A DNA stretch of 64,000 nucleotides from Bacteroidales bacterium (GTDB taxonomy: Bacteria > Bacteroidota > Bacteroidia > Bacteroidales > VadinHA17), in assembly GCA_041686075.1 (NCBI GenBank), contig JAWLEO010000009.1:30488-94487 (forward strand), in the 5' to 3' direction. This document shows positions 7,473 through 48,892 of the stretch, in pieces. Both the position numbers and the translations under genes were made by a program. A model generated the notes under the pieces. The model was not told the DNA's origin. It saw nothing but the letters and a program-made list of their open reading frames with translations, and did no database searches. Numbering within the stretch: position 1 is the first letter of the stretch; the number at the start of each line of letters is the position of its first letter.

Positions 7473-7505
7473 CAAATATATGTTATTATTTCTAATATAA
7501 ACAAA
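7473..7505 (-). promoter_or_regulatory. Bacteroidota-type promoter candidate (-33 TTTG / -7 TATATTTG) for the his leader and operon
   Basis: Minus strand TTTG (7505-7502), then 21 nt, then TATATTTG (7480-7473). The leader ATG lies 17 nt downstream behind an A-rich leader. Confidence 0.5.
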
Positions 7506-7534
7506 TGGATACTTAAAAAAGTTGAGAGTGAGCT

Positions 7535-7588
7535 GAGAATGAGTTTAGAATGCCTGCCTGCCGGCAGGCAGGAGTTTAGAATGAGTTT
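7535..7588. repeat. (GAATGAGTTTA)3 tandem repeat interrupted in phase by a perfect 20-bp palindrome
   Basis: gagaatgagtttagaatg [cctgcctgccggcaggcagg, 7553-7572] agtttagaatgagttt. Removing the palindrome restores an uninterrupted 11-bp-period array. Confidence 0.8.
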
Positions 7589-7600
7589 GTTAATAGTAGT

Positions 7601-7967
7601 TATTCACCGCCTCCAGCGGTGATTGTGTTACAAAACCCTGCTCCCTGCTCCCTGCCCCCTGCAAAACCCACGGAGTGAATAATAGCCGGGGTTTCACCCC
7701 CGGATAAATGTGGCACAATAACAATCCCACCCGCGGAGCGGGTTAATAATAATATCCCTGCTCCCTGCCCCCTGCCCCCTGCAAAACCCACGGAGTGGGT
7801 AATAGCCGGGGTTTCACCCCCGGATAAAAGCCACAAAAAAACCCCCCCCCCGCGCGCGCGGATATTTTTGTTTTTGCCCCTTATCCGCAGGTGGGACTGC
7901 GGATATTCCTATTCACCACCTCCGGCGGTGTTTGGTATTACAAAAAGCCCTCTCCCGCGCGCGCGGG
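7601..7967. repeat. cluster of REP-like hairpins upstream of the RAYT gene
   Basis: Contents: type-A hairpins ATTCACCRCCTCCRGCGGTG (7601-7621, 7911-7930); a type-B hairpin ATCCGCAGGTGGGACTGCGGAT (7883-7904); CCGGGGTTTCACCCCGG x2; ACCCRCGGAGYGGGT x2; CCGCGCGCGCGG x2. A 73-bp block is repeated with a 120-bp period (7636-7708 and 7756-7828). Confidence 0.85.
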
Positions 7968-8020
7968 ATAAATAATTTCTTATCTTTGGTGTAATCGCTG
8001 TATCAATTAAATATTTAATT

Positions 8021-8473
8021 ATGTCTACTTACACACAAATCCTTTATCAGGTTGTGTTCGGAAGTAAAAAATGTACACCGTTTCTTACAAAGACCAACCA
8101 GGATGAATTATTCAGGTACATGGCCGGGATACTTAAGAACAAGAAATGTTTTACCTACATCGTCGGGGGACATTCAAATCACATCCATCTTGTTTTCAGC
8201 CTGCATCGTACTATTGCACTCGCAGATCTTGTCCGGGATGTAAAGAAAGCATCGGAGGAAATGATGTTTAAAACGAAAGGTAAATTCGTCAGGTTCATAG
8301 GCTGGCAATCGGGCTATGGTGGGTTCACTTATTCGTACGGTTCGCGCGAACAGCTGATCAGGTATGTGGAAAACCAGGCGGAGCATCACAGGAGGATTAG
8401 CTTCAGGGAGGAATTAATTGGTTTCCTCAAAGATTTTGGTGTGGAATATAACGAAAAGTATCTTTTTGTATGA
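8021..8473 (+). CDS. REP-associated tyrosine transposase (RAYT; IS200/IS605 Y1 transposase-like)
   Basis: 150 aa with HUH motif HSNHIHLVFS and C-terminal YVENQAEHH (catalytic Tyr helix). It is flanked on both sides by REP-like hairpin arrays. No IS ends or tnpB were seen. Confidence 0.8.
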   Translation: MSTYTQILYQVVFGSKKCTPFLTKTNQDELFRYMAGILKNKKCFTYIVGGHSNHIHLVFSLHRTIALADLVRDVKKASEEMMFKTKGKFVRFIGWQSGYGGFTYSYGSREQLIRYVENQAEHHRRISFREELIGFLKDFGVEYNEKYLFV

Positions 8474-8478
8474 TTTCC

Positions 8479-8696
8479 TATTCACCGCCTCCAGCGGTGG
8501 GGTAATCTGGGATGATGCCTTTTCCACAGGTGTGACTGTGGCTATTATTATTCACCACCTCCGGCGGTATTGTGATTGTTGTTGATCCTGCTACCCACAG
8601 GTGGGACTGTGGCTATTGTTATTCACCGCCTCCAGCGGTGATTGAGCTACCCACAGGTGTGACTGCGGCTATTATTATTCACCGCCTCCGGCGGTG
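8479..8696. repeat. array of alternating type-A and type-B REP-like hairpins downstream of the RAYT gene
   Basis: Type A at 8479-8500, 8547-8568, 8621-8640 and 8677-8696. Type B (CCACAGGTGKGACTGYGG) at 8524-8541, 8595-8612 and 8651-8668. All are in the same orientation. Confidence 0.85.
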
Positions 8697-8723
8697 ATTG
8701 CTCGGCAAAAGCCCTTAAGGGGC

Positions 8724-34566: not shown

Positions 34567-35706
34567 ATGGCTGAAGCCGCAAAGGGAAAGACAATAATCA
34601 GCTATAAAGATCTGGATGTTAAGCTCACCAATCGTGCTGATGAACATATACTGGCCCTGTTAAAACGCACAGTCCTGGGTACCAGGGGAGGCATGAGGCA
34701 CCAGCTCATGCACATAAAAGAAAAGATATCAGCTTACAGGGACAATATCCGGTTTGTTTCCCTTTATAAAAAGGACAGGCTCACCGGAACGATCGGTTTC
34801 TGTTACCGTAAGATAATGACCGCAGGCAAATATTTCCACAGCTCTTATCTCAGATACTTCGCTTTCATGCCTCTTTTCCAGGCTGCCCTGGATTCCAGGG
34901 GTTCTAGCCCGGGCAAGCGACTGGCCGGCAAGGAGGAAAGATGGAAAGAAAGGGTGTTTGCTTTTATCCGTAAACCGCAGATGCTGGATTACCCGGGCTA
35001 TGAGAAGGGTGAAAAACACGTGGTTTATGCTTACGTGGAAAGCAAAAATGAAAGATCAAAAAACATTATTCGCCAGGTGGGCTTTGAACATATCAGAACT
35101 TTCTCTACCGTGGCCTTCAGCCGTTTCAATCCCAGCCAATCAGACGAAGTGGTCAAGCTCCGGGCAAGCGAAGTAAAGAAAATGAAATCACTTCTTGAAA
35201 AATTCTACGCCGGGCATTCCTTTTTTTCAGATGAGTTCAGCTTCTATGATAATAGATTTTATGTCATAAAAGAAGACGATGAAATTGTTGCAGGCTTATC
35301 TGTTATACCTTCGTCATTCAGGATCGTGGACATTCCCGGTGCCTGGGGCTGGATGTTTATGAAAATATTGCCGTTTATACCCTTTTTTAGAAAAGTTTTT
35401 CAGCCTGAAGAACTCCGTTTTTTGGTCTTTGAATCTATCTTCTTTAAAGAGGGAAGGGAAAAATGCCTGGAGAGACTTATGGAATCAGCATGTGCCATTG
35501 AAGGTTATAAGCTGGCCCTGCTATGGCTCGATGACCGGAGTGACTTATATGAGGCGGTCAGTACGCGAATAAAGCTGGGAGCATTGAACAAAATCCTCGA
35601 TGCCCAGGCCGCTATGGTTTTTGCCAGTTTCATTAATTTCTCAGCGGAAGAAAAGAAGCCATTCTTTAAACAGCCGGCGTATATTTCGGGCTTTGATTTT
35701 ACATGA
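34567..35706 (+). CDS. hypothetical protein, possible tandem GNAT-fold acyltransferase
   Basis: 379-aa ORF. The segment AYVESKNERSKNIIRQVGFEHI resembles the GNAT motif-A neighbourhood. No firm assignment. Confidence 0.4.
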   Translation: MAEAAKGKTIISYKDLDVKLTNRADEHILALLKRTVLGTRGGMRHQLMHIKEKISAYRDNIRFVSLYKKDRLTGTIGFCYRKIMTAGKYFHSSYLRYFAFMPLFQAALDSRGSSPGKRLAGKEERWKERVFAFIRKPQMLDYPGYEKGEKHVVYAYVESKNERSKNIIRQVGFEHIRTFSTVAFSRFNPSQSDEVVKLRASEVKKMKSLLEKFYAGHSFFSDEFSFYDNRFYVIKEDDEIVAGLSVIPSSFRIVDIPGAWGWMFMKILPFIPFFRKVFQPEELRFLVFESIFFKEGREKCLERLMESACAIEGYKLALLWLDDRSDLYEAVSTRIKLGALNKILDAQAAMVFASFINFSAEEKKPFFKQPAYISGFDFT

Positions 35707-35725
35707 TTTCCGGGCAATAAAAATT

Positions 35726-36448
35726 AAGGCTGAGGCTGAGGCTAAGGCTAAGGTTCCCTCCTCCGCTGAAGCTTCGGAGGGCAGAGAGAAGGCTGAGGCT
35801 GAGGCTAAGGCTAAGGTTCCCTCCTCCGCTGAAGCTTCGGAGGGTAGAGAGAAGGCTGAGGCTAAGGCTAAGGCTAAGGCTAGGAATATCTTCGATGATT
35901 TATTTAGATGATTTATAATGAATTTTAATTTTTTGCTTATTTTTATATAACGATCGGTAATAGTATTCGCTGCATTTATTCATTAGATAAACTATTCACA
36001 GAAATTAAAATGGCATATAAAGATTTTACTGAGATGCCTGTTTGGAAGAAAGCATTTTATCTTCTTTTATTAGTATACAGGTTAACCAAAAAATACCCTG
36101 CTGAGGAGAAATTCTTTTTGGTATCAGATATGCGTAGAGCTGCTCATTCGGTTACTAATAATACCGCAGAAGGTTTTGGCAGATATGAATCATTTGATAA
36201 AACCAGGTTTTATAAAATAGCTAGGGGTAGCTGTTACGAGCTTATTAATCAAAGTCTTGCCTCGAGAGCACTAGATTATATTACAAGTCATGAAAAGGAT
36301 GAACTGGTAAATGGATACCGTGATGTTATTTCCGAATTAGATTCCATGATAAAAACCATCGAAACCACAAAAAAAGAAATACACCGGTACTGATTTAAAT
36401 TTATAATAGCTCAATTCTCTCCTTAGCCTTAGCCTCAGCCTTAGCCTT
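35726..36448. repeat. inverted-repeat cassette 2: (RAGGCT)n arms around a four-helix-bundle gene; the left arm carries a 63-bp tandem duplication
   Basis: The left region 35726-35884 holds 63-bp units at 35726-35788 and 35789-35851 plus a partial third. Each unit is (RAGGCT)4-5 plus the hairpin CCTCCG-ctgaagctt-CGGAGG. The right arm ctccttagccttagcctcagccttagcctt (36419-36448) is its complement. Confidence 0.8.
36010..36393 (+). CDS. four-helix-bundle protein (23S rRNA IVS protein / Avd family)
   Basis: 127 aa with the family pattern RRAAHSVTNNTAEGFGRYESFDKTRFYKIARGSCYEL. Confidence 0.75.
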   Translation: MAYKDFTEMPVWKKAFYLLLLVYRLTKKYPAEEKFFLVSDMRRAAHSVTNNTAEGFGRYESFDKTRFYKIARGSCYELINQSLASRALDYITSHEKDELVNGYRDVISELDSMIKTIETTKKEIHRY

Positions 36449-36530
36449 CTTATTCCTTGAATATCCGGAATAATCTTGCTAATATTACACCATCCTGAGA
36501 ACCTTGCCTTAACTATTTAATAAACTTCAA

Positions 36531-36707
36531 ATGAAACACATAAGCCTCTCGCTGATCTTATTCCTCCTACTGGCTGCCTGCAGCAAAAATATTAAGCATG
36601 AAGGCGGGCCTCATGACCTCGTGTTTGATGACCTGGTCTCTTCATGGGATGAGGCAGCAAACTCTTTGAAAATATTATATTTAGAGCAAAAGAAGAATAA
36701 CACGTAA
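36531..36707 (+). pseudogene. 58-codon lipoprotein-signal ORF, possibly the N-terminal remnant of a larger gene
   Basis: MKHISLSLILFLLLAAC lipobox, then ...HDLVFDDLVSSWDEA..., stopping 10 nt before the GH29 gene. It is below the ORF-track cutoff and was read by hand. Confidence 0.3.
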
Positions 36708-38912: not shown

Positions 38913-39015
38913 TTGCTGAAAAATTCAGTTACAGGTGCAAGTTATTCATATTATTCATTAAAAGAAATTGTTTGATGAATTTTTTAGAATTAATCGGTCG
39001 AATATTCGAATAATA

Positions 39016-39578
39016 GCAGGGAGCAGGGAGCAGGGAGAATGCAATAATCTGTAATAATTCATATATTTATTTAAAAATTATTAGTTTATAACTCGTTGCA
39101 TTAAAACTGGAAGAACATGAAAAATTTTCGATTTGAAGATTTAAAGATTTGGCATGATGCCATTAATCTCGGAGACAGGCTATTTGATATTGCAGAAATA
39201 GCTGATAGCAAAAAGCTCTATAAATTTGCGGAGCAATTAAGAAGCTCAGGTTTATCAATTTCAAATAATATAGCAGAAGGAGCCGGGTCTTTTTCAAAAA
39301 AGGAATTCAGTCAATTCCTTAATATTGCCAGAAGATCAGTTTTTGAGTGTGCAAATATGATTATAATATTCCACAGAAGATTAATAATTGATGATTTAGT
39401 TAAAACCGAAATTATAAGTGATCTGGCTTACTTAAGCAAAAGAATTACATCTTTCAGGAACTCACTTATATAACATAAGCTTCTTCGGACCCTTAGTGAG
39501 GCTTCCAAACTATTTACTAGCAGAGTGAAGTAGGTAATTTAACTTTATTCCCTGCTCCCTGCTCCCTGCTCCCTGCTC
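39016..39578. repeat. inverted-repeat cassette 3: (GCAGGGA)n arms around a four-helix-bundle gene
   Basis: The left arm gcagggagcagggagcagggag (39016-39037) is complementary to the right arm tccctgctccctgctccctgctccctgctc (39549-39578). Confidence 0.8.
39117..39473 (+). CDS. four-helix-bundle protein (23S rRNA IVS protein / Avd family)
   Basis: 118 aa with the family pattern QLRSSGLSISNNIAEGAGSFSKKEFSQFLNIARRSVFE. Confidence 0.75.
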   Translation: MKNFRFEDLKIWHDAINLGDRLFDIAEIADSKKLYKFAEQLRSSGLSISNNIAEGAGSFSKKEFSQFLNIARRSVFECANMIIIFHRRLIIDDLVKTEIISDLAYLSKRITSFRNSLI

Positions 39579-48628: not shown

Positions 48629-48892
48629 AGGCTGAGGCTAAGGCTAAGGCTAAGGGGAAGGCAGGGGGCAGGGAGCAGGGAGCAGAGAGCAGGGAGCAGG
48701 GAGCAGGGGGCAGGGAGCAGGGAGCAGGGAGCAGGGGGCAGGGGGCAGGGTGGTCAAAATGGAACTGCTACCAGCTGCCAAATCATAATTAATAATTAAT
48801 ACTTAATTTCTCCTTCTCCTCACTGTGTCCGCCGAAGCTAGGCACGGATCGGGAGATCCGCGCCAGCGAAGGTGGAGCCTCAGCCTTAGCCT
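48629..48892. repeat. ORF-less composite element: (RAGGCT)n arm, 13 x GCAGGGR heptads, hairpin core, complementary arm
   Basis: Order of parts: aggctgaggctaaggctaaggctaagg (48629-48655); (GCAGGGR)13 (48661-48750); GGCACGGATC-GGGA-GATCCGCGCC hairpin (48841-48864); gagcctcagccttagcct (48875-48892). Confidence 0.8.

Follow-up and report, generated by a model that had tools for sequence, protein, structure and literature searches.

How does a protein-coding gene come to lie between two mutually complementary repeat arrays, themselves lodged between two host genes of the same strand, and why is one of the arrays tandemly duplicated? This question is raised by a locus that we call cassette 2, at 35726-36448 in a 64-kb stretch of DNA (64,000 nucleotides, hereafter the window, to which all unprefixed positions refer) from the genome of a Bacteroidales bacterium. 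In cassette 2 a gene for a four-helix-bundle (4HB) protein of family PF05635 is preceded by (RAGGCT)n hexamer tracts and followed by the complementary array (AGCCTY)n. The reading we favour, with a probability of roughly 55%, is that cassette 2 is a selfish element resembling the intervening sequences (IVSs) of 23S rRNA, composed of left array, leader, PF05635 gene and right array, and residing between same-strand host genes. We favour this IVS-like model because of the predicted fold of the transcript, the bias towards G.U mismatches in the arms, the presence of an RNase III gene in the genome, and the precedent of Coxiella burnetii.

A sequence-only reading of the locus had described a 4HB gene between complementary arms, and this architecture proved correct: the gene is intact, and the right arm is complementary to all three left tracts, with the coordinates given in Table 1. 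Against the middle tract, two flanking bases included (36421-36450), the right arm is 97% complementary over 30 nt; against the gene-proximal tract the match is 100% over 22 nt (36421-36442), and against the distal tract plus flank it is 85% over 39 nt. The same reading had counted 2.5 copies of a 63-bp unit at 35726-35884, and both repeat comparison and Tandem Repeats Finder agree (35726-35879, period 63, 2.4 copies, 97% matches, no indels, score 294). The two full copies, 35726-35788 and 35789-35851, are 98% identical and differ by a single C/T position (GGGCAGAGAG versus GGGTAGAGAG). The 63-bp unit as a whole had been taken for the arm, and this view stands for one part of it only. Each unit consists of a (RAGGCT)4.7 tract of ~28 nt, AAGGCTGAGGCTGAGGCTAAGGCTAAGG, which is indeed arm, followed by a 35-nt hairpin module, TTCCCTCCTCCGCTGAAGCTTCGGAGGG(C/T)AGAGAG, which folds as CCCUCC/GGAGGG or CCUCCG/CGGAGG and is an independent dispersed element inside the tract. 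We also agree with the earlier dismissal of the 103-aa open reading frame (ORF) at 35600-35911 as a mere translation of the repeat: it has no family match, its length varies by 21 codons with the repeat, and in public annotations it appears with 72 aa or 51 aa, according to repeat copy number alone.

Table 1. Features of cassette 2 and the Y1-transposase genes of the same genome (window positions unless prefixed).
Feature	Position	Strand	Basis or remark
Left flank of insertion site, TTTCCGGGCAATAAAAATT	35707..35725	+	Directly 3' of the stop codon (35704-35706) of the upstream 379-aa gene; empty-site match
Left hexamer tract 1, AAGGCTGAGGCTGAGGCTAAGGCTAAGG, 4.7 units	35726..35753	+	Repeat finding; complementarity to right arm
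Hairpin module H, copy 1, TTCCCTCCTCCGCTGAAGCTTCGGAGGGCAGAGAG	35754..35788	+	Dispersed hairpin family, conserved loop, covarying stems
Left hexamer tract 2, same sequence as tract 1	35789..35816	+	Partner of right arm in minimum-free-energy fold
Hairpin module H, copy 2, GGGTAGAGAG variant	35817..35851	+	Sole H copy retained in the one-unit-shorter assembly
Left hexamer tract 3, 5.2 units, most gene-proximal	35852..35882	+	Repeat finding; complementarity to right arm
AT-rich leader of 4HB gene	35883..36009	+	Partial conservation in two closest orthologues
4HB gene, 127 aa	36010..36393	+	PF05635, TIGR02436 and PDB 2gsc matches
Right arm, CCTTAGCCTTAGCCTCAGCCTTAGCCTT, 4.7 units	36421..36448	+	Begins 27 nt past 4HB stop codon; complementary to left tracts
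Right flank of insertion site, CTTATTCCTTGAATATCCGGAA	36449..36470	+	TTATTCCT and, further on, TAATATTA match the empty sites of G012 and G007
Y1-transposase gene (flanks ~7500-8700)	8030-8377		PF01797
Y1-transposase gene	C2:127349-127597		PF01797
Y1-transposase gene	C69:3625-3969		PF01797

The 127-aa product matches PF05635 (23S rRNA intervening-sequence protein; 94 bits, E 8e-27, cut-off 33.8) and TIGR02436 (four helix bundle protein; 90.6 bits, cut-off 24), and it has a solved homologue in Xanthomonas campestris XCC0516 (PDB 2gsc, E 4e-15). The gene is under purifying selection, the ratio of nonsynonymous to synonymous substitution rates (dN/dS) being 0.087 and 0.10 relative to its two closest orthologues, while dS to the others is saturated. 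By analogy with its relative Avd, the protein is probably a pentameric nucleic-acid binder. Parts of the leader in front of the gene (TTATTTTTATA...CGCTGCATT) recur in the two closest orthologues, whereas those more distant have a different leader of ~45 nt. We found no convincing sigma-70-type promoter or terminator in the leader, and no terminator between the genes around the cassette.

Cassette 2 has many counterparts. The genome (3.5 Mb, 90 contigs) contains 17 PF05635 genes, mostly flanked by inverted arrays of their own 6-9-nt unit, and together with 40 relatives it yielded a sample of 94 non-redundant cassettes. For each gene the 400 nt on the upstream side were compared with the 400 nt on the downstream side, and the best ungapped inverted match served as arm score; non-cognate pairings of upstream and downstream flanks made up the null. 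The 95th percentile of this null (12.5) was exceeded by 74 of the 94 cassettes and its maximum (19.5) by 43; cassette 2 scored 27.5, above every non-cognate pairing. The arms also have a strict polarity. More G than C was found in the upstream arm of 67 of 72 cassettes (p 6e-15; total G:C 867:289), and no G/C skew in the sequence far upstream. In this genome, all 8 opposite-type RAGGCT array pairs within 1 kb are likewise G-rich first, as read from a list and not computed. Since an inverted repeat reads the same on both strands, G-rich-first is a rule of inside versus outside that holds in either reading direction.

The arm unit follows the gene lineage. Same-genus and same-family genomes contain relatives of the 127-aa protein at 61-90% identity, and further ones came from 18 loci in a species-level genome collection (Bacteroidales, Rikenellaceae, Saprospiraceae and other Bacteroidota metagenome-assembled genomes, MAGs). 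Wherever both flanks could be read, each relative of at least 61% identity is preceded by (RAGGCT)n and followed by (AGCCTY)n, with different neighbour genes at each locus, and in one MAG with six copies of the lineage each readable flank has a RAGGCT-type array. This gene lineage thus carries RAGGCT/AGCCTY arms wherever it is located. A Hanamia relative of 38% identity has arms of the GGTTTAGA type. In pairwise comparison across all cassettes, a 9-mer was common to the two left arms in 23 of 26 pairs at a protein identity of at least 75%, in 27 of 52 at 60-75%, in 2 of 67 at 50-60% and in about 1% below 50%. The pair L109/L118, with proteins 89% identical and different arms, was considered as an exception and rejected, as the arms are nested or variant forms of one related unit. 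In L059 and L065 the irregularities of one arm are mirrored in the other, which indicates that the two arms evolve together, and the arms are kept while dS is saturated, so that the arm unit has outlived neutral sequence.

We next consider the transcript. In the RNA fold of 35707-36470 (-214.5 kcal/mol, z -3.9) the arms are paired, and the outer flanks TTCCGG/CCGGAA (CCGGAA at 36464-36470) pair as well. The several pairing registers anticipated from the sequence alone do appear: the partner of the right arm is the middle tract in the minimum-free-energy fold and the first tract in the centroid fold. A terminal complementary stem around the ORF, of the ~20-30 bp typical of an IVS, is thus present in both folds (30 nt, 97%). 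The 28-nt pairing of the right arm with tract 1 contains one non-Watson-Crick position, which is G.U on the sense RNA and C.A on the antisense RNA. Sense-strand mismatches of the G.U type and the A.C type stand at 13:6 in this lineage and 98:83 over all arms (no p was computed for these two ratios), and at 21:9 in the cleanest strong arms (p 0.04), a pattern that lends weak support to arm pairing in the sense RNA. The genome also has an RNase III gene (C15:56529-56897).

In the helix-45 IVS of C. burnetii, which carries S23p, a 28-bp stem is cut by RNase III, and strains have either 2 or 3 copies of a heptamer (Warrier et al., 2016; PMC4990558). Like the ORF-bearing 23S rRNA IVSs of Coxiella and Leptospira, cassette 2 has a PF05635-family ORF in the loop of a ~28-bp terminal inverted-repeat stem, short 5' tandem repeats that vary in copy number (heptamers numbering 2 or 3 in Coxiella; 63-bp units numbering 1.5 or 2.5 here), and a position at what appears to be a former small palindrome; the rRNA elements are regarded as selfish. 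Unlike them, it sits between protein-coding genes, its arms are wholly made of tandem hexamers, and purifying selection clearly acts on its gene, in contrast to the decaying ORF of Coxiella. Excision by RNase III has been shown in Coxiella and is proposed here by analogy. We rejected the possibility that cassette 2 is an actual 23S rRNA IVS, as its neighbours are protein-coding and no Rfam family reached the gathering threshold in the 64-kb window, where the repeat gave chance miRNA-level matches only.

In the mechanism that we propose, the right arm of a read-through transcript would pair with one of the three left tracts, forming a stem of 28-30 bp with one G.U. Cleavage of this stem by RNase III, as in the rRNA IVSs, would set free the 4HB message, with the host genes on either side remaining functional. 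The G-rich-first order may serve to avoid exposing the C-rich array as a single-stranded loading site for Rho before its partner exists, as a C-rich array that is transcribed last would pair at once with the G-rich one. If this RNA-stem model is true, such cassettes would represent a general way for a gene to live in operons without polar effects.

The left arm contains, in addition, a second and unrelated dispersed element, namely the 35-nt hairpin. This hairpin also occurs in the genome without a 4HB gene: four tandem units of RAGGCT tract plus hairpin are found at C6:116404-116630, one copy follows eight AAGGCT units on C32, and at C8:~99000 two copies and a third, diverged one alternate with GCAGGGA tracts. 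A genome search with the loop CGCTGAAGCTTCGG, allowing up to 2 mismatches, revealed about 25 hairpins with the loop TTCGCTGAAGCTWCGG and covarying stems (CCTCC/GGAGG, CCACC/GGTGG, CCGCC/GGCGG, CAGCC/GGCTG, GGCC/GGCC), more than half of them adjoining tandem arrays of several different units. The exact 24-nt core CCTCCTCCGCTGAAGCTTCGGAGG is present in 74 metagenome contigs of the Joint Genome Institute (L142-L215), in 62 distinct contexts and at 29-69% G+C, and the bases that flank the core again covary. Some copies were seen within tandem arrays of other units, some are apparently located in coding regions, to judge by the sequence around them, and one lies ~340 nt upstream of a 4HB gene; with 4HB genes beside the hairpin in 1 of the 62 contexts, there is no enrichment for them. 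An in-frame case was also seen in the genome itself, at C7:63922-65196, where an E2 dihydrolipoamide acyltransferase has its linker (...EASSSAEATEDRKAEAEAEAEAKAKAEAKAEAK...) encoded by a hairpin module and then a RAGGCT run; in the orthologue from G003 (72% identity) the linker is E/K/P-rich and unrelated.

For the hairpin, the systems to compare are repetitive extragenic palindromic (REP) sequences and their hairpin-forming doublets (REPINs) with the REP-associated tyrosine transposases (RAYTs), and the Rickettsia palindromic elements (RPEs). In common with REP and RPE, it is a short imperfect palindrome, dispersed in many copies between genes and in frame inside genes, with compensatory changes in its stems, and each of the three Y1-transposase (PF01797, RAYT-like) genes in the genome has REP-like, GC-rich hairpins of its own family on either side. 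Those around the copy in the window include TTATTCACCGCCTCCAGCGGTGATTG. One hairpin type that flanks a Y1 gene (GCTGGCGCG...CGTGCC) is nested in the loop of a member of the 35-nt family, and the composite interrupts the left arm of a paralogous cassette on C14 and the right arm of the orthologue in G001. In view of the copies away from 4HB genes, the covarying stems and these composites, we take the hairpin to be a separate REP/RPE-like element that inserted into the hexamer tract. It is unlike REP in that its identical core spans contigs of 29-69% G+C, far wider than the species-specific REP, and in that it was not seen beside a RAYT gene and is often found inside tandem arrays. The hairpin sequence was not found in any searchable paper.

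Once such an element had inserted into the tract, unequal recombination or replication slippage between the flanking tracts would have made the 63-bp units, and could remove them. Both hairpin copies have the same imperfect junctions (AAGGTT before, AGAGAG after), which points to a duplication and not to two insertions, and the unit boundaries lie in the hexamer tracts, as expected for either process. The repeated tract-plus-hairpin units at C6 and C8 show a comparable higher-order arrangement. The tandem duplication is accompanied by a difference of one unit between otherwise identical assemblies: a 274-kb contig of GCA_046482335.1 is 100% identical to window 29054-49473 save for one missing 63-bp unit, the T variant being retained, and a 224-kb contig of GCA_051746125.1 has the 2.5-copy form and is identical over 3219 bp. 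The other arrays in the shared 20 kb, a 13-unit heptad tract included, are identical between the assemblies. As the copies differ by a single-nucleotide polymorphism (SNP) and the flanks by none, the 2.5-copy form is the older one and the 1.5-copy form reflects deletion or collapse. The comparison of copy number that the sequence-only reading had suggested thus does find a difference between assemblies. Its claim that the arms are actively expanding is not shown, as the SNP points to contraction or collapse of an older duplication. We lean towards the difference being a real polymorphism.

As to arm length, the orthologues in which the left arm could be read have a single left tract of about 4-6 units (L057 has a masked run of N here, and L059 short spaced blocks), and this argues for a constraint on length rather than runaway growth. 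In one orthologue (L019/L056) the right arm is tandemly duplicated, with a unit of ~70 nt. Logan contigs of two public runs, SRR31818007 and SRR31818008, match the locus, and one of SRR31818008 starts exactly at 35853, an indication that graph assemblers break at the tracts. A fourth near-identical assembly, GCA_964562315.1 (L044), has few differing sites outside a masked N run; compared with window 39007-39037 and 48667-48726 it shows two differences in heptad arrays and one in a GC-rich hairpin region, and its contig starts and ends near RAGGCT-armed elements.

With respect to the insertion itself, the order of the 379-aa gene and the fucosidase gene on either side of the cassette is conserved across the genus, and two same-genus genomes (G012 and G007) have an empty site. 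Marking junctions by a slash, their spacer reads ...CAATAAAAAT/ATTATTCCTAATATTATAC and the empty-site junction CAATAAAAAT/ATTATTCCTAATATTA, while the filled site reads CAATAAAAAT/T(AAGGCT ... cassette ... AGCCTT)C/TTATTCCT...TAATATTACAC. In this alignment the inserted DNA starts and stops with the arrays. That the ends of the insert are the outer ends of the arrays is probable but not certain, because the match to the empty site is short. The target looks like a small AT-rich palindrome. At the same site, G006 has a solo, near-identical right arm (CTCCTCAGTCTCAGCCTCAGCCTTAGCATCAGCCTT) and then the same downstream sequence, and G001, the closest species, has codons 14-71 of the 4HB gene, inverted relative to the flanks and directly adjoining a right arm that a GC-rich hairpin insert divides in two. 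These remnants indicate that the cassette predates the species and decays via deletion, inversion and invasion; its presence at this site goes back beyond the split of three same-genus species, two of which now have decayed forms. In G006 and G004, the nearest intact orthologues are at other genomic positions. A metagenome scan for the left junction of the locus gave no match. In place of the left half of the cassette, G001 (L035 1403-2405) has a pair resembling a toxin-antitoxin system, made up of an HTH_17 gene and a PIN_3 gene with an interrupting stop codon.

Several observations weigh against the IVS-like reading or parts of it. An inverted repeat is the same on both strands, and the arms alone cannot indicate on which strand, or in which molecule (DNA or RNA), they act; the G.U excess is weak overall. 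The cassette encodes no enzyme for movement, no movement event was caught, and no target duplication is visible at the junctions AAAAAT/TAAGGCT and AGCCTTC/TTATTCC. The empty-site match spans ~27 nt and comes from species with ~60% identity in the flanking gene. The 35-nt hairpin was not found flanking any of the three Y1-transposase genes, which have other hairpin types, and the one-unit difference could be an assembler collapse, given that the copies share 56 identical bases.

A first alternative, to which we assign a minority chance, is that the arms act as DNA, forming cruciforms or single-strand hairpins that are sites of recombination or transposition by the host machinery or by a trans-acting enzyme such as a Y1 RAYT-like transposase, with RNA pairing incidental. 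The inverted gene remnant in G001 is what recombination between inverted arms would yield, and the occurrence of the lineage at many unrelated loci, the coincidence of insert ends with array ends, the three Y1-transposase genes with their REP-like hairpins, and the landing of hairpin elements within arrays here and in other genomes all fit such an account. It has to contend with the lack of a target duplication and of a transposase in or beside the cassette, with arm units that vary between lineages and so make a single sequence-specific enzyme unlikely, and with a lone mismatch that is G.U-compatible solely as sense RNA, next to the 21:9 excess of the strongest arms. The two models are not exclusive, and DNA-level action would be compatible with pairing in the RNA. 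The candidates of an insertion sequence or a miniature inverted-repeat transposable element (MITE) were rejected for the absence of a transposase in the cassette and of a duplication at its junctions.

A further alternative, which we consider improbable, starts from the length of the tracts. Those of cassette 2 have 4.7, 4.7, 5.2 and 4.7 units and the left arms of orthologues 4.7-5.7, and among the 116 arrays of at least 3 perfect RAGGCT units in the genome the mode is 4 (45 of 116). Together with orthologue arms of ~2.5-6 units overall, this mode makes tract length look constrained, with exceptions of 17-27 units; these few arrays are mostly at contig ends and cause assembly breaks. The 4HB protein, as a putative pentamer, might then read its own arrays at about one unit per subunit and regulate, protect or propagate the cassette, the three ~5-unit tracts being candidate binding sites. 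The five chains of the solved homologue 2gsc and the tracking of protein clade by arm unit would agree with this. Yet the 116 arrays in the genome compare with just two cognate genes, co-inheritance of gene and arm is equally expected from plain descent of the whole cassette, and a length of ~28 nt would suit an RNase III substrate just as well.

That the 63-bp duplication or its copy-number difference is an assembly artefact is very improbable, for although the 56 identical bases shared by the copies are hard for short k-mers and the Logan contig breaks at 35853, as further contigs break in RAGGCT arrays, the 2.5-copy form is found in the source genome and in a separate assembly (the 224-kb contig), the SNP between the copies is not what an artefactual expansion would produce, and the 1.5-copy assembly GCA_046482335.1 resolves the C6 array of four tract-plus-hairpin units identically to the source genome.

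Two other identities were considered for the arms and the protein. G-quadruplex formation was rejected, as RAGGCT has GG only and the arms lack the four or more runs of at least three G. The protein shares its family or fold with Avd, the accessory protein of diversity-generating retroelements (DGRs; PF05635 relatives). Unlike in the Avd system, there is no reverse transcriptase and no template/variable repeat pair near the cassette, and we rejected a DGR on the ground that the neighbours include no reverse transcriptase and the sole RVT_1 match in the genome is a broken fragment on C35.

The G-rich heptamer repeats of Xanthomonas and Nostoc offer another comparison: in Xanthomonas, those that occur in pairs are convergent without exception (Rehm et al., 2015; PMC4692102). 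Like the arms described here, those repeats are dispersed, intergenic tandem repeats of 6-9 nt with a preferred length of about four units, and many are paired, G-rich first, and mostly between same-strand genes; the homologue 2gsc, moreover, comes from X. campestris. They differ in being read as G-quadruplex formers, whereas RAGGCT has no G-tract of three. A term search of the text of that paper for S23, 'intervening' and 'four helix' gave no hits. In the literature searched we found no paper that ties PF05635 genes to flanking tandem arrays outside rRNA; as far as we found, the class is known in rRNA and has no description elsewhere, with the rRNA case and surveys of gene-less repeats being all that is in print.

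We raise a wider proposal in tentative form: repeat-armed 4HB cassettes may constitute a bacteria-wide class of transcript-riding selfish elements, of which the 23S rRNA IVS occupies one niche, and whose rules may be adaptations that make insertion harmless, with tandem arrays being preferred landing sites of a cross-phylum hairpin. If so, the design rules would be arms of ~4-5 units, a unit that descends with the gene lineage, a target at the tip of a palindrome that was already there, and the G-rich array always first; RNase III would cut the stem and the C-rich array would never meet Rho. The 'repeat vocabularies' between genes would then be layered products of both elements and of unequal recombination. 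Few small genes annotated as "hypothetical" are as common in Bacteroidota and other phyla as those of PF05635, and short intergenic repeats of 6-9 nt have been unexplained for decades. The present locus combines a filled site with its empty counterpart, stages of decay in sister species, an arm unit that one gene lineage has kept across orders despite saturated synonymous sites, strict polarity and a natural copy-number variant. That one apparent "repeat arm" can be two nested elements matters for annotation and assembly, because spurious ORFs of 51-103 aa get called and contigs break in such regions.

Lastly, the genes around cassette 2 all lie on the + strand, in the order DUF4197 gene, 379-aa gene (no family), cassette, 58-codon remnant and GH29 fucosidase gene. 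The 58-codon ORF (36531-36707) encodes a lipoprotein signal and is the 5' remnant of a far larger gene. In G004, G006 and G007 a homologous signal peptide starts an ORF of ~1.5-2.3 kb between the 379-aa and fucosidase genes, and its size may be greater in G007, since that contig ends inside it. With ~42 homologous codons left at 36531-36707, most of this large gene has been deleted here.

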